Below, one piece after another: positions 3,630 to 64,000 of a stretch of DNA of 64,000 nt; position 1 is the first letter of the stretch, and each line of letters begins with the position of its first letter. Position numbers and translations under genes: made by a program. The stretch lies in assembly GCA_043810695.1 (NCBI GenBank), contig JBDRNV010000009.1:3675-67674 (forward strand), given 5' to 3'. The notes under the pieces are model-generated. The model was given only the letters and a program-made list of their open reading frames with translations. It did no database searches and was not told the origin of the DNA. This DNA comes from Nanobdellota archaeon (lineage in GTDB: Archaea > Nanobdellota > Nanobdellia > Pacearchaeales > GW2011-AR1).

Positions 3630-5051
3630 ATGAAAGTTTTATTTATATATCATAATAGAGTTGAAAGTGGCTATATGCCTCAGTCTATAGCTGTCTTAGG
3701 AGGAATACTACACGATGGAGGAATTGAAACAAAGTTATTTGATACTAGTTTTTATCGGGATATTAATTCTCCATTTACTCAAGATGATAGAAGTATTCGA
3801 GCAAAACAGAAAAAAGGAGGATATCTAATTGGACAGTTAGGTCCTGGAAGAGAAGTTGTGGATTTAAAAGCCAAATTTCGTGAAGAAGTTGAAAATTATC
3901 ACCCAGATTTAGTTGCAGCTACTTCTACCTCTTTTGAATTTAATTCTTTATTAGATTTTGTAACACCAACAACAAGTGAAATGAAAATACCTTTTTTAGT
4001 TGGAGGAGTTCATACCACTGTTGTTCCGGAAAAAGCAATAACAAAAAAAGGACTTGATATACTCTGCATAGATGAAGGAGAAAAACCTTTATTAGAATTA
4101 GCAAGAAGAATAGAAAAAAAGCAGAATTATTATGATATTCCCAATCTTTGGTTTAAAACTCCTGAAGGAAAAATAATAAAAAATAAAATTGGGGCTTTTT
4201 TTGAAAAAATGGATGAGCTTCCTGAATCTGATTGGGATTTAATTGATGAATATCACAGAATTCGTCCATTTGAAAAAGAAATAATGAAATATGGTTGGTT
4301 TGAAACAAGTCGAGGATGTCCTTTTAATTGCAGTTATTGTGTTAACGCAAAATTACATAAAATAAAAAGAGAAGGAGGTATTATGCATCCAGGAACTTAT
4401 CGCTTTTTTAGTCCAGAAGAGATAGTAAAAAGAATGAAAAATAAAAAAGATCAATATGGATATAATCACATACAGTTAATAGACGAAAATATGCCTAACA
4501 TGCCTGTATCAAATCTTGAACATCTTGCAAAATTATTCAAGAATCAAATTGGAGTTGGATTTTTTACACAGGCAAGACCTGAATGTTTTGTTAAAACTCC
4601 TGAAAAAGCAGAAATAATGGCTGAAATGGGATGTAAAATGGTCGGACTTGGAGTTGAAAGTGGAAATTATGAATTAAGAAAAAATATTCTTCATCGTCCT
4701 ATGAAAGACGGAATTGTCGAAAAAGCAGTTGAAAATCTGAAAAAAGCAGGAATAATGGTTGCAACCTATTATATTATAGGATTTCCAACAGAGACAGAAG
4801 AAATGATTAGACAGACAATTGATTTGCATAGAAGAATAAATCCAGATAGATTTTCTGTAAGATTTTTACATCCTTTTCCAGGAACACCAATAAGAGAATT
4901 CTGCGTTAAAAATAAATATATAGCAGAAGATTATGAAGATTTAATACAAGATGCTTCATTTTTTTCAAATCCTGTATTAAATTTACCCTCTCCTCTGCAT
5001 CCAACAAAGGAAAGATTAATAGAATTAAGAAAGGAATTTGAAAACTATTAA
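3630..5051 (+). CDS. B12-binding-domain radical SAM enzyme (class B-like)
   Basis: SRGCPFNCSYC is a CX3CX2C cluster motif. The N-terminal Rossmann-like domain has MKVLFIYHN and LVGGVHTT. I prefer the ATG at 3630 over the TTG at 3609 used in the ORF track. Confidence 0.85.
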   Translation: MKVLFIYHNRVESGYMPQSIAVLGGILHDGGIETKLFDTSFYRDINSPFTQDDRSIRAKQKKGGYLIGQLGPGREVVDLKAKFREEVENYHPDLVAATSTSFEFNSLLDFVTPTTSEMKIPFLVGGVHTTVVPEKAITKKGLDILCIDEGEKPLLELARRIEKKQNYYDIPNLWFKTPEGKIIKNKIGAFFEKMDELPESDWDLIDEYHRIRPFEKEIMKYGWFETSRGCPFNCSYCVNAKLHKIKREGGIMHPGTYRFFSPEEIVKRMKNKKDQYGYNHIQLIDENMPNMPVSNLEHLAKLFKNQIGVGFFTQARPECFVKTPEKAEIMAEMGCKMVGLGVESGNYELRKNILHRPMKDGIVEKAVENLKKAGIMVATYYIIGFPTETEEMIRQTIDLHRRINPDRFSVRFLHPFPGTPIREFCVKNKYIAEDYEDLIQDASFFSNPVLNLPSPLHPTKERLIELRKEFENY

Positions 5052-56469: not shown

Positions 56470-56805
56470 ATGAAAAACAAAGAAGAATCATCACCAAAAC
56501 AGCATGAGAAAGAACAGAAAATTCAGGAAATGCAGATTCTTGAGCAAAATCTTCAGAATCTTCTTCTTCAAAAGCAAGCCTTTCAGATGGAAATTTCAGA
56601 AGTCAAAGCCGCAAAAAAAGAAATAGAAAAATCAGACGATATTTTTAAGATTATAGGGCAGTTGATGATAAGAACAGATAAGGAAAAGACAAGTCAAGAG
56701 CTGTTAAATAAAGAAAAACTTCTTGATATTAGGCTAAAATCAATAGAAAAACAGGAAGCTTTGTTGTCTGAACGAGTTGAAAATCTTAAAAAAGAAATTT
56801 TTTAA
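56470..56805 (+). CDS. pfdB: prefoldin beta subunit
   Basis: Coiled coil - beta hairpin (IFKIIGQLMIRTDKEK) - coiled coil. Neighbourhood fits. Confidence 0.85.
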   Translation: MKNKEESSPKQHEKEQKIQEMQILEQNLQNLLLQKQAFQMEISEVKAAKKEIEKSDDIFKIIGQLMIRTDKEKTSQELLNKEKLLDIRLKSIEKQEALLSERVENLKKEIF

Positions 56806-56877: not shown

Positions 56878-57270
56878 ATGATTTTTGATAAAATAAAAAA
56901 AGCATTTTCAACAAAAGGGGGAAGCGAATTCAATGACGAATATCTTGAAATCGATCTTGGTAAGGAAGAGCATGAAAGCAAGGTTTTTGTCAAGCTTTTT
57001 GTATTAAAAGAATACGATGATGTTAATGATATTTTAAGTGCTTTGAGAGAAGGTTATACTATTGCAATTATTGATATAAAAACTCTTAGACAGAAAGATT
57101 CCATTGAACTTAAAAGAGCTGTTTCAAAAATAAAAAAGACAGTTGATGCTCTTGAAGGCACTATCGCAGGTTTTGGAGAAAATACAGTAATAGCAACCCC
57201 TTCTTTTGCTAAAATCCATAGGGAACCACCAAAGGTAAAAGAAGAAAAAAAGAAGTTTGATTATTATTGA
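56878..57270 (+). CDS. sepF: archaeal SepF-like cell division protein (DUF552)
   Basis: Short N-terminal amphipathic segment (MIFDKIKKAF), then VFVKLFVLKEYDDVNDILSALREGYTIAIIDI and GTIAGFGENTVIATP. Confidence 0.75.
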   Translation: MIFDKIKKAFSTKGGSEFNDEYLEIDLGKEEHESKVFVKLFVLKEYDDVNDILSALREGYTIAIIDIKTLRQKDSIELKRAVSKIKKTVDALEGTIAGFGENTVIATPSFAKIHREPPKVKEEKKKFDYY

Positions 57271-57898: not shown

Positions 57899-58059
57899 CT
57901 CTTTTATTGCAACTTTTTTGTTTTATTACAAATAAGATGAATATTTCTAATTATATAAATTTTCTTATTTAAGATAATATTTGAATTTTTAGAAAATTTC
58001 TGCTTCAAAAATATATATTTCAAATAACAGAAATCTTTATATACCATAGTAACTGAAAA

Positions 58060-59916
58060 ATGATTACAGAAAAAATGAGAAATAAGTTACTAAGTCTGTT
58101 TGCATTCAGTATTTTTGCACTTGTATTTGTAATGAGTGCTGTCAGTGCTGTGACATTAGCTGAATGGCCATTGACTAGTGATGGAAGTCCAGTAAGTGTT
58201 GTTACTAATTTAACTGCTGGAACATTTACAAATAGTTCTGGTATTTCTCAAGTTACATTTAGTGCAGTTAATGGAGCAACATCTAGCGAATGGTCAACTG
58301 ATACTATAAATAATAGTGAATATTTTGAAGTAATAATTTCCCCACAAACAGGAAATAACTTATTAATTTCACAAATAAGTTTTAATTATAGTAGATCAGA
58401 TACAGGCCCTGTAAATTATACTTTTCAATGGGATGATAATGCTGCTTTTAGTTCACCAATTACAATTTCAACAGGCAATCCAAATAATATAACAGAACAG
58501 ACAGCCACATCTTCTTTAAGCATTAGTGCTTCTGCTAGTAAAACTATTTATCTAAGATGGTTTGCTTATAATGCAGGAAGTTCTTTAGGAACATTTAGGG
58601 TTAAATCTTTAAATATTCAAGGAACAGTTACGCCAATAATAACACCCATAACAGAACCATCAGAAATAACAGCATGTTCTGCTATTGGAAATCCAGGAGA
58701 GCTCAAAGTTAAGAAAATAGATTTCAAAAATAATGGATTATCTTCAGGCGTAAAGTTTGGTGATGATAATGAATGGTTTCCTTTTGAAGAACTTGAAGTT
58801 GAAATTCAGCTAAAGAATGAGGGAAATGATAATATTGATGACATATCTGTTGAATGGGGAATCTGGGATATTAAAGCACAAAATTGGATTATTGATCTTG
58901 ATGAAGAAGATGAAATTAATATTAAGGATGGAGATACTGAAACAATTACAGCTACTTTTACTATTGATGATGATTTAGATGTTGATTTAGAAGACTTAAC
59001 AGATGGAGAGAATTATAGGTTTTATGTTGTAGCAACAGGAACAGTTGATAATGATACATCTCCTGAAACATGTATAAGCGATTATGAAAAATCATCAATA
59101 ATTATAGAAAGTGATTTTGTGATTGTTGATAATATTCAAATGCCAGAAACAGTACGATGCGGAGAAACTGTTACAGTAACAGCAGATGTTTGGAATATAG
59201 GAGACAGAGATCAAGACGAAGTTTCAGTACGTATAACTAATAAAGAATTAAATTTAGCAGAAAATGTAATTGTAGGGGATATAAATGCATTTGATAATGA
59301 AAGAATTTCATTTTCATTTACAATACCAAAAGATGCAGAAGAGAAAACCTATCCCTATCCAATAATGTTTAAGGTTTATGATGAAGATGGTGATGTTTAT
59401 GTAAATGATTTTGATGATGACTATTCAGAATTTGCCTTTCCATTAAGTATTGAAGGAAGTTGCACAGGAACATCTTCATCTGTTACAGTCACTGCTAATC
59501 TTGTTTCAGGAGGAAAAGCAGGAGAAGATTTGGTAGTTAAAGCTATCATAACAAATTCAGGAACTAGCTTGGCAACATATTCAATAAGTGCATCAGGATA
59601 TGGACAATGGGCTTCTTCATATGATGTAGAACCTAAAACACTGGCTTTGGCAGCAGGACAATTAGGAGAAGTTTTATTCACCTTTAATGTTAACAAAGAT
59701 GCTTCTGGAGAACAAACTTTCATGATAGAAATTGTTTCAGGAGATGAAATCACAACTCAGCCTGTTTCAATTCTAATAGAACCAAGCGGCAGTCTCTTTG
59801 GAATAACAGGCTTTTCAATAGCTGGAAACACAGGCTTATGGGCTCTTGGATTTTTGAATATAATCCTTGTATTAATAATAATTTTTGTTGCTATAAGAAT
59901 AACAAGAAAAAAATAA
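58060..59916 (+). CDS. secreted cell-surface protein with CARDB-like repeats and a C-terminal sorting-type signal
   Basis: Signal peptide (LFAFSIFALVFVMSAVSAVT) and many NxS/T sequons. CARDB-like segments include VTVTADVWNIGDRDQDEVSV and LVVKAIITNSGTSLATYSI. The C-terminus GITGFSIAGNTGLWALGFLNIILVLIIIFVAIRITRKK combines a motif, a TM helix and a basic tail. Confidence 0.75.
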   Translation: MITEKMRNKLLSLFAFSIFALVFVMSAVSAVTLAEWPLTSDGSPVSVVTNLTAGTFTNSSGISQVTFSAVNGATSSEWSTDTINNSEYFEVIISPQTGNNLLISQISFNYSRSDTGPVNYTFQWDDNAAFSSPITISTGNPNNITEQTATSSLSISASASKTIYLRWFAYNAGSSLGTFRVKSLNIQGTVTPIITPITEPSEITACSAIGNPGELKVKKIDFKNNGLSSGVKFGDDNEWFPFEELEVEIQLKNEGNDNIDDISVEWGIWDIKAQNWIIDLDEEDEINIKDGDTETITATFTIDDDLDVDLEDLTDGENYRFYVVATGTVDNDTSPETCISDYEKSSIIIESDFVIVDNIQMPETVRCGETVTVTADVWNIGDRDQDEVSVRITNKELNLAENVIVGDINAFDNERISFSFTIPKDAEEKTYPYPIMFKVYDEDGDVYVNDFDDDYSEFAFPLSIEGSCTGTSSSVTVTANLVSGGKAGEDLVVKAIITNSGTSLATYSISASGYGQWASSYDVEPKTLALAAGQLGEVLFTFNVNKDASGEQTFMIEIVSGDEITTQPVSILIEPSGSLFGITGFSIAGNTGLWALGFLNIILVLIIIFVAIRITRKK

Positions 59917-59928
59917 TTTTAAATTAAA

Positions 59929-60195
59929 ATGGCATTTCCAATTGAAAAAATATTAACTGTTAGGGCAAGAGATTATATTGAAACTAAAGGTGGGAAACTT
60001 TATGAGATGGTTGGTGTTCATGTTGAATTAGGATATAGTGAACCTAGTTTATTAAAAGCTTTTTCTGAGAAAGTTCCAAAAAATGCAGAGATTGTTGTAG
60101 ATTATAACCCAAATGGAACAGACGCTTCTAGTGCGACATTCTTTCGTATGGCATCTGGAACAGCACTAATTCGTATAAAAGATAAAGATGCGTAA
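59929..60195 (+). CDS. hypothetical small protein (88 aa)
   Basis: ORF only. Lies between the surface protein and the archaeosortase-like gene. Confidence 0.45.
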   Translation: MAFPIEKILTVRARDYIETKGGKLYEMVGVHVELGYSEPSLLKAFSEKVPKNAEIVVDYNPNGTDASSATFFRMASGTALIRIKDKDA

Positions 60196-60229
60196 ATAGT
60201 TATTTAAATCTCTTTTTCTATAATCTTTT

Positions 60230-60772
60230 ATGAGAAATAAAAGAGGAGATAGTCTTTGGAATGTAATAATAAGATATCTTATTCTGATTGCTGTTGCTAT
60301 TCCAAATCTATTCTTGTTTTATATTATATTTAACCCCTTGACTGTCTTGCCTGTTTATTTCCTTTTAGGACTTTTTTTTGATGCTTCTCTTTTATCAAGT
60401 TCAATTATTCTTCTAAATGGTTTTTTTCCAATAGAACTCATAGAAGCATGCATTGCAAGTTCTGCATATTATCTTCTTCTTATTCTTAATCTAGCAACAC
60501 CGGGTTTAAAATTAAAAACCAGGATTTATTCTATTCTTTTTTCATTTGCTGTTTTTCTTGTTATAAATATCTTAAGAATTTTTATATTAAGCCTTGTTGC
60601 AATTTCAGGTTCTCCTGTTTTTGATATAACTCATAAGGTATTCTGGTATCTTGTAAGCACTTTGTTTGTAGTTGGAATATGGTTTGCAGAAATAAAACTT
60701 TTCAAAATAAAAGAGATCCCTATTTATTCTGACTTAAAGAATTTATATGATAAATCTAGTTTAAGAAAGTGA
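60230..60772 (+). CDS. small exosortase/archaeosortase-family protein
   Basis: Polytopic 180-aa protein with the family Cys/Arg/His landmarks in order: IEACIASSAYY, FLVINILRIFIL (NxxR), DITHKVFWYL. Confidence 0.65.
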   Translation: MRNKRGDSLWNVIIRYLILIAVAIPNLFLFYIIFNPLTVLPVYFLLGLFFDASLLSSSIILLNGFFPIELIEACIASSAYYLLLILNLATPGLKLKTRIYSILFSFAVFLVINILRIFILSLVAISGSPVFDITHKVFWYLVSTLFVVGIWFAEIKLFKIKEIPIYSDLKNLYDKSSLRK

Positions 60773-60884: not shown

Positions 60885-61496
60885 ATGTTCGAATTAATTA
60901 ACCAGGCTATAGATGCTCTTCTTTTAATTATAAAAAATTTTGGTTATATTGGAATTTTTATAGGAATGGCTATTGAAAGTTCTATTTTTCCTCTTCCAAG
61001 CGAGTTAATATTAATTCCAGCAGGAGCCCTGGTTATAAAAGGAGAAATGAACTTTTTTTTGGTTTTTGTTGCAGGACTTTTAGGAAGTCTTATAGGAGCT
61101 GTAATAAATTATTTTTTAGCCTTTTTTTTGGGCAGAAAAACCCTTGATTTTCTCGTCTATAAATACGGCAAATTCTTTTTTATAGGAAAAACCCAGCTTG
61201 AAAAAACAGAAGGTTATTTCAAAAAGCATGGAGAAATAACAACATTTATAGGAAGACTTTTACCAGTAGTAAGACATCTTATTTCACTTCCAGCAGGCTT
61301 TGCAAAAATGAACCTTGGAAAATTTTCATTATTTACCTTATTAGGAGCAGGAATATGGACATTTATTTTAATTATTATAGGAATGTTTTTCGGTGGAAGT
61401 GCAGAACCGATTCTTAAATGGATAACAGCTATTATTTTGTTTGTTTTACTTTTGATAGTTGTTGTATACTATACGCTTAAAATAAAATCAAAATAA
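60885..61496 (+). CDS. DedA-family membrane protein
   Basis: GYIGIFIGMAIESSIFPLPSELILIPAG and FIGRLLPVVRHLISLPAG. Confidence 0.85.
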   Translation: MFELINQAIDALLLIIKNFGYIGIFIGMAIESSIFPLPSELILIPAGALVIKGEMNFFLVFVAGLLGSLIGAVINYFLAFFLGRKTLDFLVYKYGKFFFIGKTQLEKTEGYFKKHGEITTFIGRLLPVVRHLISLPAGFAKMNLGKFSLFTLLGAGIWTFILIIIGMFFGGSAEPILKWITAIILFVLLLIVVVYYTLKIKSK

Positions 61497-61516: not shown

Positions 61517-62257
61517 TCAGAGTTGTTTGTTTATTTCCTGAAAAGTTTCAATCATGAACCTTTCTGTTCCTTCAAGTATTTCACAGTCTTTGATGTTTAT
61601 ATTGTAGCATGCAGGACCAACTTTTTCTATGCTTGTTTCATTGGATTCCTGCAATTTCACAAACATATACCTTCCATCTGGATCACAGGTTGCATTTTCA
61701 TCTTTTATTACATTAATTCTTGTAATTTTATAGAGCTGTAAAAGATTTGCTACAGCAATAATCCCCTTACCATTACAATTAAAATCAGATGTACTGTTAA
61801 GAACCATTATATCTCGAAATACAAGTCGTCCTTCAAACTTCACATTTTCTGCAAGTTTTCTTGGATCATTTCTTAAATAAAAATTATATGTTGTATTTTC
61901 TCTTTTATAAAGAACAGGAATTTGCATATTATAAGTTACTAAACATGGTCCAGAGTCACAAAATTTTACAACCTTAACTGCCATCCCCTGATATTCAAAA
62001 TTATTTCCTAAATTAATTATAAAAATAATAAGAAATATTAACATTATAATACTCCCCATTCCTATAAGAAAATTCTTTAAAATTTTATATTGGTTTTTAG
62101 TAGATTCTTCTTTTGTTAGTTGGACATTTCCTTTTTCTTCCTGAACGTCTTCCTTTTTTTCTTTAACACGTCCAAGCTTGGACGTGTTTTCTTTTTTTAT
62201 TTCAGGAATTATCTCTGTCTTTTTATTCTCTTCTTTCTTTCTTTTTTTTATTGCCAT
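61517..62257 (-). CDS. hypothetical N-terminally anchored extracytoplasmic protein (246 aa)
   Basis: K/E-rich N-terminus, a single TM (FLIGMGSIIMLIFLIIFIINL) and a Cys-containing C-terminal domain. Confidence 0.55.
   Translation of the reverse strand: MAIKKRKKEENKKTEIIPEIKKENTSKLGRVKEKKEDVQEEKGNVQLTKEESTKNQYKILKNFLIGMGSIIMLIFLIIFIINLGNNFEYQGMAVKVVKFCDSGPCLVTYNMQIPVLYKRENTTYNFYLRNDPRKLAENVKFEGRLVFRDIMVLNSTSDFNCNGKGIIAVANLLQLYKITRINVIKDENATCDPDGRYMFVKLQESNETSIEKVGPACYNINIKDCEILEGTERFMIETFQEINKQL
62165..62188. repeat. perfect 24-bp palindrome AACACGTCCAAG|CTTGGACGTGTT inside the 61517..62257 CDS
   Basis: Read directly. Encodes ENTSKLGRVKE on the minus strand. Confidence 0.85.
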
Positions 62258-62276
62258 ATTAAATTTATTATTCTAT

Positions 62277-62846
62277 TTATTCTTTTATTTTTAAAATCTT
62301 GAATAAAAACTGATCAACCAGTTTTACAATCTCATCTTTTGTTCCCTCAATGTAAACACAGTTATTTTCTTGAGTAATCCTTGAATTATTAGTTTCTTTT
62401 ATTATTATAAAGTTATCTGTGCAGGTTTTTATGGGTGAATCTCCAGGACATTCAAGTCCTTCAAGACATGCTGGCTGAACTCTTTCTGCAATTTGTCTAA
62501 GGTTTAAATAAACCTCTATTTCTGCATCTTTATTTTCAGAGTAAATATACAAAGGTAATCCTTGATAATATGTTGCATCTTTTAAGTCTGTTCCGATTTC
62601 AGGCACCTGATTTGGATTATATTTAAACGCAAAATTTCCAATAGCCCATAACTCATTTATATATGAAAATTCAAATCCATTGTAAGTTAATTTATCTGTT
62701 TCTTCATTTCCAGAACCATCAGAACCACCCTGTAACGCAAATCCTAAAACACTTAAAACCATTAAAACGACAAGAATAATTCCCACTATTATTTGATTTC
62801 TTTTCCTTTTTTCTTCTTCATCATGTTTTGAAATAAGTCTTTGCAT
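62277..62846 (-). CDS. hypothetical N-terminally anchored extracytoplasmic protein (189 aa), distant paralog of the upstream gene
   Basis: Same architecture. The C-terminal patterns are similar: KTCTDNFIIIKETNNSRITQENNCVYIEGT versus ATCDPDGRYMFVKLQESNETSIEKVGPACYNINIKDCEILEGT. Confidence 0.55.
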   Translation of the reverse strand: MQRLISKHDEEEKRKRNQIIVGIILVVLMVLSVLGFALQGGSDGSGNEETDKLTYNGFEFSYINELWAIGNFAFKYNPNQVPEIGTDLKDATYYQGLPLYIYSENKDAEIEVYLNLRQIAERVQPACLEGLECPGDSPIKTCTDNFIIIKETNNSRITQENNCVYIEGTKDEIVKLVDQFLFKILKIKE

Positions 62847-62961: not shown

Positions 62962-64000
62962 TTAACTTACCTGAAGTGTTGCGCTAGTTGAGGAAGTACC
63001 AATATACTTCTTGCCAGCTGTAGTATCTACAGTTTTTGTTGTTAGATATGTAGCAGCATTTACAGTATCTACTGCGTCATAACCAGCAACAAGCAATGCA
63101 ATCTTACCTGTTGAGTAAGCATCGCCAAAGCTCTGGATTAAGAATTGTCCAGAACCTACACCTGTTGCATCTTTCCATGCAGCACTACATTTAGCTCCTC
63201 CAACCAAGTTAGCAGCAACTGAGTTTATACAGCTTCCACCAACTACGATTAAGTTCTTTGAACTTACAGAGCTTACTTCTGAGTCTGTTACAAGCACATC
63301 TCCCAATACACCTGCTCCAGTAGTTGTTTCTGGTGCAGATAAATAAAGATTTGCGTATGACTGATCTCCATGGTATGTTACTACAGCACTATCATAATCT
63401 CCACCTGTTGCGTGTACAATCTTTGTTGCCAAATCATCTATGACATAATACTCATAGTCATCTGTACTTTCAATTTCAAGACCTGTTGAGTCTGTTGTTA
63501 CTGTTTGTACATGAACTTTATTGGTAGTTGTTCCAGATTCATCTAATGTCATATTAAATGTATCTCCAGCACCAATAGTATTATCCTTATTTTGTGTATC
63601 AAAGAATAGATACCAGTTATCATAGAAATAACCAGCTACTGATATTGTACCAGCTGTTAGATTGACAAAACCAGGTAATAAAGCAGCTGGTGTAAGAACA
63701 CCACTACCACTTTCATTAGTCCAAGGAAGATGTATCTTCAGTCCTTCTGCAGTGTATATTACATCTGTACTTGAACCAGAGTTTAAAGTAAAGTTAAAGA
63801 TTTCTAAAAGTCCGCTTACTCTTGTAACATTCGTGACAGTTATCTCTACATTACCAAATGAAATAACATCATTCAAAGCAGCTGTTTTTTCAGATCCTGT
63901 AATCACATTTTTGAATCTTGCTTTTGTAACACTATCTTCTGTTACAACATCTGCTCTTAAATAGTAAGATTCTGCATCTGTAGTTGTGTTCCATGATACA
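62962..64000 (-). CDS. S-layer-like surface protein (5' end outside window)
   Basis: The frame stays open upstream of the GTG at 63906 to the window edge (hand checked). Thr/Ser/Val-rich beta-type sequence with NxS/T sequons. The C-terminal block KNLIVVGGSCINSVAANLVGG...ALLVAGYDAVDTVNAATYL resembles archaeal S-layer C-terminal domains. Confidence 0.55.
   Translation of the reverse strand, partial: VSWNTTTDAESYYLRADVVTEDSVTKARFKNVITGSEKTAALNDVISFGNVEITVTNVTRVSGLLEIFNFTLNSGSSTDVIYTAEGLKIHLPWTNESGSGVLTPAALLPGFVNLTAGTISVAGYFYDNWYLFFDTQNKDNTIGAGDTFNMTLDESGTTTNKVHVQTVTTDSTGLEIESTDDYEYYVIDDLATKIVHATGGDYDSAVVTYHGDQSYANLYLSAPETTTGAGVLGDVLVTDSEVSSVSSKNLIVVGGSCINSVAANLVGGAKCSAAWKDATGVGSGQFLIQSFGDAYSTGKIALLVAGYDAVDTVNAATYLTTKTVDTTAGKKYIGTSSTSATLQVS

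Follow-up and report, generated by a model that had tools for sequence, protein, structure and literature searches.

A pacearchaeosortase gene and its probable single substrate, a PACE-CTERM surface protein, in a reduced Pacearchaeota-type DPANN archaeon

Does an archaeon with a very small genome encode a membrane enzyme that is dedicated to one of its own surface proteins, and if so, what might that enzyme do to it? The question is raised by three plus-strand genes near the end of a 64,000-nucleotide stretch of DNA from a Nanobdellota archaeon (positions 3,675 to 67,674 of contig JBDRNV010000009.1, assembly GCA_043810695.1; hereafter the window), whose products are 618, 88 and 180 residues long (Table 1). 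A preliminary description, made from the letters of the window, had proposed that the 180-residue protein is a minimal archaeosortase-family enzyme and that the 618-residue protein, encoded two genes upstream, carries the sorting signal on which it acts. The gene coordinates and strands in that description agreed exactly with our open reading frame (ORF) list, as did the Cys, Arg and His contexts and the C-terminal tail that it quoted. We consider it very probable that the locus encodes a pacearchaeosortase together with its single dedicated substrate, a PACE-CTERM surface protein, in a reduced archaeon of the Pacearchaeota type within the DPANN archaea. The genome assembly comprises 669,792 bp (~0.67 Mb) in 24 contigs and is estimated to be 80% complete, and the G+C content of the window is ~30%.

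The identity of the 180-residue protein was examined with curated family models. Against the NCBIfam model NF033505, named "pacearchaeosortase", it scored 215.4 bits (cut-off 80), with residues 10-176 aligned to positions 2-166 of the 167 in the model, and a six-frame search of the genome with the same model returned the sortase at 214.9 bits. The exosortase/archaeosortase signature TIGR04178 was matched over residues 69-156 at 30.8 bits (cut-off 23), and a Pfam search of the protein gave no match. Relatives with 60-79% identity, from metagenome-assembled genomes of Candidatus Pacearchaeota and Nanoarchaeota, bear the name "pacearchaeosortase" at NCBI. These scores uphold the placement of the small protein in the archaeosortase family. 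It resembles ArtB, ArtD, XrtH and XrtX in being a short enzyme (their models span 150-168 positions) and shows weak homology to them (E 5e-7 to 0.02), but membership in any of the four was rejected because its scores fell far under their cut-offs (29.8 against 170 bits for XrtX, 18.3 against 86 for XrtH, 16.8 against 150 for ArtB and 14.7 against 125 for ArtD). The ArtA and PGF-CTERM models were not among the NCBIfam matches at E values up to 1, and the tail of the 618-residue protein contains no PGF.

Three residues of the sortase are candidates for its catalytic set, and they occur in the Cys/Arg/His order that had been pointed out beforehand: Cys74 (in EACIASS, codon 60449-60451), Arg116 (in NILRIF, codon 60575-60577) and His135 (in ITHKVFW, codon 60632-60634). 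Each of them was invariant in an alignment of orthologues (30/30) and again in a separate alignment (48/48); Arg98 and Asn113 were likewise invariant among the 30 orthologues, and Arg15 joined them in the 48-sequence alignment. The AlphaFold model of the sortase, with a predicted local distance difference test (pLDDT) score of 82.9 and a predicted template modelling (pTM) score of 0.75, is confident; it consists of a long, helical N-terminal part (residues 9-49), then a small unit of beta structure (52-69), the short helix that bears Cys74, and further helices at 78-89, 95-125 (with Asn113 and Arg116) and 131-157 (with His135 at its start). By the positive-inside rule, the basic N-terminus, residues 93-98 and the C-terminus should face the cytoplasm, which, taken together with the helices of the model, would put Cys74, Arg116 and His135 level with the outer leaflet, where the conserved start of the target's C-terminal helix would also sit. 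Solved structures matching the sortase were found neither by sequence search nor by fold search. In one relative (G002) we observed a 297-residue sortase ORF with an N-terminal extension (L021 1090-1983) and, beside the target gene, a second, truncated sortase copy (G002:C5:24372-24722).

The 618-residue protein, which we refer to as the target, matched the NCBIfam model NF033506 ("PACE-CTERM-PROT, putative S-layer protein") at 425 bits (cut-off 110), with residues 9-617 corresponding to positions 2-627 of the 627 in the model. Like the sortase, it clears its curated cut-off by a margin well beyond chance. The sole addition from Pfam was CARDB at residues 351-427 (39.4 bits, cut-off 22.7), in keeping with the earlier view of the protein as CARDB-like. 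The target begins with a Sec signal peptide (residues 1-30, with S29-A30 conserved). A conservation profile of 104 full-length homologues, from which the conservation values given below also derive, revealed a hypervariable N-terminal beta-sandwich domain (31-200) followed by three conserved CARDB/macroglobulin-like beta-sandwich domains (201-574) that include Cys206, Cys338, Cys367 and Cys468. In the AlphaFold model (pLDDT 90), four beta-sandwich domains follow the signal peptide, the linker at 575-590 is disordered (pLDDT ~41 for residues 580-591) and residues 591-617 form a helix. The protein had also been called sequon-rich, a description that did not hold: it contains seven N-x-S/T sequons against a composition-shuffle mean of 7.8, and six of the seven lie in the variable N-terminal domain. 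Its relatives are named "putative S-layer protein" at NCBI. A fold search with the model returned generic beta-sandwich chains of the macroglobulin and immunoglobulin (Ig)-domain kinds, with no S-layer protein among the top 50, so that "S-layer protein" is for this target a putative and unverified label. In another relative (G028), the target gene was seen to carry two in-frame TAG codons (G028:C15:51673-53361).

At its C-terminus the target has the tripartite signal that had been recognised there, namely a motif or motifs, a transmembrane (TM) helix (591-617 in the model) and a basic end, RITRKK. The last 38 residues showed the lowest entropy in the whole protein, and six positions among them were conserved at 90-98% each (W594, G597, L599 and N600 at 92-98%, T583 and G584 at 90% or above). 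When 70 homologous tails were parsed, the conserved linker motif proved to be G-[ILM]-T-G, written as GITG or GLTG in 50 of them, and the next residue was variable. This result bears on the proposal that the motif is "TGF-like", a counterpart of PGF, which we rejected, given that Phe (Phe585 here) follows T-G in just 14 of the 70 tails and that a spacer of 9-10 residues lies between G-I-T-G and the W-x-x-G-x-L-N start of the helix. The PACE-CTERM tail differs from PGF-CTERM in this spacer, which parts its conserved linker motif from the helix.

A tail of this kind could also be a permanent TM anchor, as in Sulfolobus SlaB, in which case the small membrane protein would act elsewhere or non-proteolytically. 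For anchoring, however, hydrophobicity would suffice, and neither the near-fixation of W594, G597, L599, N600, T583 and G584 nor a level of conservation exceeding that of the folded domains would be expected. The distribution of the tail bears on the same choice. One sortase and one full-length target were found in the genome, and a tail hidden Markov model (HMM), built on 24 orthologous tails and run against all six-frame ORFs of the genome, recovered the target alone (E = 6e-25; next best 0.11) and hence no further substrate. Because this profile finds one protein in the genome, the sortase and the PACE-CTERM protein form a dedicated 1:1 pair, and exosortase-type systems with a single target are a known pattern. 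A lone tail had been put forward in the preliminary description as a sign of a plain membrane anchor, and the search did indeed return no other protein; still, a plain anchor does not follow, because the tail is the most conserved segment of the target and because, across families, the two genes occur together and are linked.

The evidence for co-occurrence and linkage came from a survey of 61 related genomes, 15 of them of high quality, and of 30 loci from the genus and 20 from other families (L032-L051). Of the 61 relatives, 52 had a sortase and 54 a target scoring above the respective cut-off, and both were present in 15/15 high-quality genomes. In at least 24 of the 30 genus loci the target gene was adjacent to and upstream of the sortase gene, and a distance below 2 kb was also seen in four other families (f3, f5, f6 and f9), which brings the families with linkage to five. 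Tail-bearing paralogues number two or three in some other families and one in the present genus. In families f4, f7 and f8 the two genes show no linkage, a point that, along with the single tail-bearing protein and the fact that no biochemical data were found in the literature, speaks for a permanent anchor. The adjacency in five families, the unbroken co-occurrence in high-quality genomes and the lack of any other tripartite-tail candidate substrate in the genome speak against it, and on balance we regard a permanent anchor as distinctly improbable.

The reading that we prefer, a sortase with one dedicated PACE-CTERM substrate, is not new in kind. With the system described by NF033505 and NF033506 the locus shares full-length matches, protein size, the invariant Cys/Arg/His, the tail architecture and the adjacency of the genes, and its differences are local only: an 88-residue ORF separates target and sortase, and at this site there is no divergent PAP2 gene of the sort commonly seen in other families. 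The pair is already catalogued, and standard annotation names both genes automatically. The window therefore adds no new kind of system, both families being present in curated NCBIfam models. The idea of a dedicated sortase/substrate pair belonging to a small archaeosortase subtype has been borne out by these models, by the co-occurrence and by the linkage.

What the sortase does to the target can be proposed by analogy with ArtA and PGF-CTERM of Haloferax. After export through Sec, the target would be anchored transiently by its C-terminal helix; the sortase, itself embedded in the membrane, would then recognise the W-x-x-G-x-L-N helix start, together with the upstream G-I-T-G linker motif, and Cys74 would attack the chain, with removal of the helix and the basic tail. 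With less certainty, the new C-terminus may be passed to a membrane lipid, and the outcome may be a lipid-anchored stalk of four beta-sandwich domains with the hypervariable N-terminal domain outermost. ArtA of Haloferax volcanii cleaves off PGF-CTERM, and a lipid is attached (PMC9263693, PMC7157517); its Cys173, Arg214 and Arg253 are critical (PMC9263693). Both enzymes belong to the exosortase/archaeosortase superfamily, the TIGR04178 cut-off having been passed here, and their Cys-Arg spacing is nearly the same (41, from 173 to 214, in ArtA and 42, from 74 to 116, in the present sortase). Likewise, in both systems a major surface protein (for ArtA, the S-layer glycoprotein among others) ends in a tripartite signal, and certain lineages of both have genes of lipid metabolism linked to the sortase (PMC7157517). 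ArtA is larger (~300 against 180 residues) and has nine substrates in H. volcanii, in contrast to the single substrate here.

Several points weigh against our interpretation of the pair. The case for cleavage, for its position and for the attachment of a lipid comes throughout from analogy with ArtA. A literature search found no paper with the word "pacearchaeosortase" and no experimental work on the subfamily. The preliminary description, which called the subtype poorly characterised, overlooked its existing name and the curated model of its target. The arrangement of the tail is a further point: the substrate signature motifs of exosortases, archaeosortases and rhombosortases, including those of PEP-, PGF- and GlyGly-CTERM, lie directly against the helix without a spacer, as stated in a preprint (bioRxiv 10.1101/2023.06.07.544157), and G-I-T-G sits 9-10 residues upstream of the helix, with W594-x-x-G597 at the helix start. 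Since the known signals have no spacer, W-x-x-G-x-L-N is no weaker a candidate than G-I-T-G for the element that is recognised. Another point concerns the third catalytic residue. A Cys/Arg/His triad was inferred by Haft for the superfamily, in the same preprint (bioRxiv 10.1101/2023.06.07.544157), but the third critical residue of ArtA is Arg253 and not His (PMC9263693), so His135 is a candidate for this role alongside Arg98 or Arg15.

The last of these points concerns the lipid. PssD (phosphatidylserine decarboxylase, PF02666), on which ArtA-dependent lipidation depends (PMC7157517), was absent from the present genome and from 60 of the 61 relatives, including all 15 of high quality, and in this the present lineage differs from that of ArtA. 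The ArtA-type lipid-donor route (PssA/PssD) is thus not encoded; the genome contains a single CDP-alcohol phosphatidyltransferase (C4:179-511). For this reason lipid transfer is the weakest step of the proposed mechanism, and, as PssD is lacking in the order, the lipid acceptor could not be archaetidylethanolamine made by the cell itself. The order probably borrows host lipids.

Among the genes found next to the sortase in one lineage or another, two point to lipid handling. In loci from other families, the most constant neighbour of the sortase is a gene for a PAP2 phosphatase, divergently oriented and 33-89 bp away in 16 of 20 loci, even where the target is encoded elsewhere. A divergent PAP2 gene lay beside the sortase in just seven of the 30 genus loci; it does not adjoin the sortase here, and the genome's PAP2 match is a weaker one on another contig (C2:46827-47393). 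The second is a gene for a DedA-like protein, which starts 112 bp downstream of the sortase gene and whose product matched VTT_dom of Pfam at 82 bits and the UptA model NF052604 at 124 bits, under the cut-off of 250. A DedA gene was found 3' of the sortase in 18 of the 30 genus loci, in many cases at a distance of 0-7 bp, and in none of the 20 from other families, where a profile search was included, so a role for DedA as a universal partner was rejected family-wide.

These neighbours, together with the missing PssD, bear on whether the sortase might act as an endopeptidase only, clipping the tail so that the protein is released, shed or passed non-covalently to an S-layer lattice, with no lipid involved. 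Cells that lack PssD do not make the ethanolamine-lipid nucleophile that has been proposed for ArtA, and one-step transpeptidase action is not established even for ArtA, according to the preprint cited above (bioRxiv 10.1101/2023.06.07.544157). An anchorless protein of an S-layer family, encoded by a conserved neighbour of the sortase, could hold the released target. The Cys/Arg/His set, however, fits transpeptidase-type sortases, and the most constant neighbours are lipid-handling genes, as the PAP2 and DedA counts show. Moreover, DPANN cells can obtain lipids from their hosts. We therefore judge endopeptidase action without lipid attachment to be unlikely.

Table 1. Positions in the window of the target and sortase genes, of segments of the target tail and of neighbouring genes
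Feature	Position	Strand	Basis
Prefoldin-beta and SepF	56470-56805 and 56878-57270 (just upstream of the target gene)		Synteny
PACE-CTERM target protein ("putative S-layer protein"), 618 residues	58060..59916	+	NF033506, CARDB, conservation profile, AlphaFold
Flexible linker of the target tail, residues 575-590	59782..59829	+	Low pLDDT, conserved G-I-T-G
G-I-T-G motif of the target tail, G581-G584	59800-59811	+	Conservation
Predicted tail TM helix, residues 591-612, with start W594-x-x-G597-x-L599-N600, then basic R613-K618	59830..59913	+	Model, conservation, tail HMM
Soluble protein with no assigned function, 88 residues	59929..60195	+	Homologue survey, no family match
Pacearchaeosortase, 180 residues, polytopic membrane protein, putative cysteine peptidase or transpeptidase	60230..60772	+	NF033505, TIGR04178, residue invariance, AlphaFold
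DedA/VTT-family membrane protein (UptA-like polyprenyl-phosphate transporter family)	60885..61496	+	Pfam VTT_dom
Two single-pass membrane proteins, 246 residues (61517-62257) and 189 residues (62277-62846)	61517..62846	-	Synteny
S-layer-family protein, 786 residues, C-terminal part inside the window	62962..64000 (full gene to 65334)	-	PF05124

The 88-residue gene between target and sortase had homologues in five of 60 relatives, all of the same genus; in two of these (G003 and G028) it occupied the same slot between the two genes, and in two others (G006 and G013) it lay elsewhere. Its product had no match in Pfam, NCBIfam or PHROG. With so sporadic a distribution, confined to the genus, and no family match, it was rejected as a component of the system and is an accessory insert outside the core.

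Further out, a block of genes recurs across families, made up of prefoldin-beta, SepF, target and sortase on one side and, on the other, two single-pass membrane proteins and the anchorless protein of 786 residues. Prefoldin-beta and SepF keep their place upstream of the target at no fewer than six loci of other families; since midcell is where both ArtA and the insertion of the S-layer are localised in Haloferax, this placement is notable. Homologues of the 246- and 189-residue membrane proteins flank the sortase in seven loci from other families (L032, L038, L039, L043, L044, L047 and L050) as well as in genus loci. Neither protein had a family match in NCBIfam, Pfam or PHROG, and the possibility that they are paralogues of one another was unsupported (BLASTP E = 0.24). 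The 786-residue protein, read at full length from the contig, matched PF05124 (S_layer_C) at 44.7 bits (cut-off 23.9); it is a secreted protein with a signal peptide, belongs to the Methanococcales S-layer family, and ends in ...TSSTSATLQVS with no TM anchor. Five loci from other families have a homologue of it beside the sortase block. Possibly it is this protein that forms the lattice, which would put doubt on the label "putative S-layer protein" for the target.

As a more classical S-layer candidate and a neighbour conserved with the sortase block across families, the 786-residue protein could itself be imagined as the real substrate, with the 618-residue protein a bystander. Its C-terminal end, however, has neither a hydrophobic helix nor a basic cluster, and thus no tripartite signal, and the protein was not matched by the tail HMM; we find this assignment scarcely credible.

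With the PACE-CTERM protein kept as the substrate, the neighbourhood permits a broader and rather doubtful proposal, in which the pair would make up half of an envelope module conserved in DPANN archaea and arranged as prefoldin-beta, SepF, target, divergent PAP2, sortase, two single-pass membrane proteins and the anchorless S-layer-family protein. The acceptor would then be a different lipid, prepared or recycled by an outward-facing PAP2 and, in the genus, also by a DedA-type flippase. If this were true, the cell would wear a two-component coat, with the target as a lipid-anchored Ig-domain stalk and a separate lattice protein. The SlaA/SlaB system of Sulfolobales offers a parallel, in that a membrane-tethered, stalk-like protein and an anchorless lattice protein are encoded by genes that lie close together, the parts being taken here by PACE-CTERM and S_layer_C. 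There is, however, no sequence relationship between the two systems, SlaB keeps its TM helix, and Sulfolobales are without an archaeosortase (PMC6098224). Synteny is what suggests a two-component S-layer at the present locus.

Pacearchaeota-type DPANN archaea probably use the pair to attach a major surface protein that evolves fast, and it is with this surface that they meet hosts and viruses. Where the target would be cleaved, what would anchor it when PssD is lacking and what the strongly conserved PAP2 neighbour means are questions for the family as a whole, and this locus illustrates them poorly because the PAP2 gene is not adjacent; the window's copy is an ordinary one, without the most interesting neighbour of the family.

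With regard to expression, TATA-like boxes were seen at 58036-58043, ~24 bp before the ATG of the target gene, and at 60203-60209, ~27 bp before that of the sortase gene. Their positions suggest separate leaderless transcripts for target and sortase, a suggestion that carries little weight at the low G+C content (~30%) of the genome.

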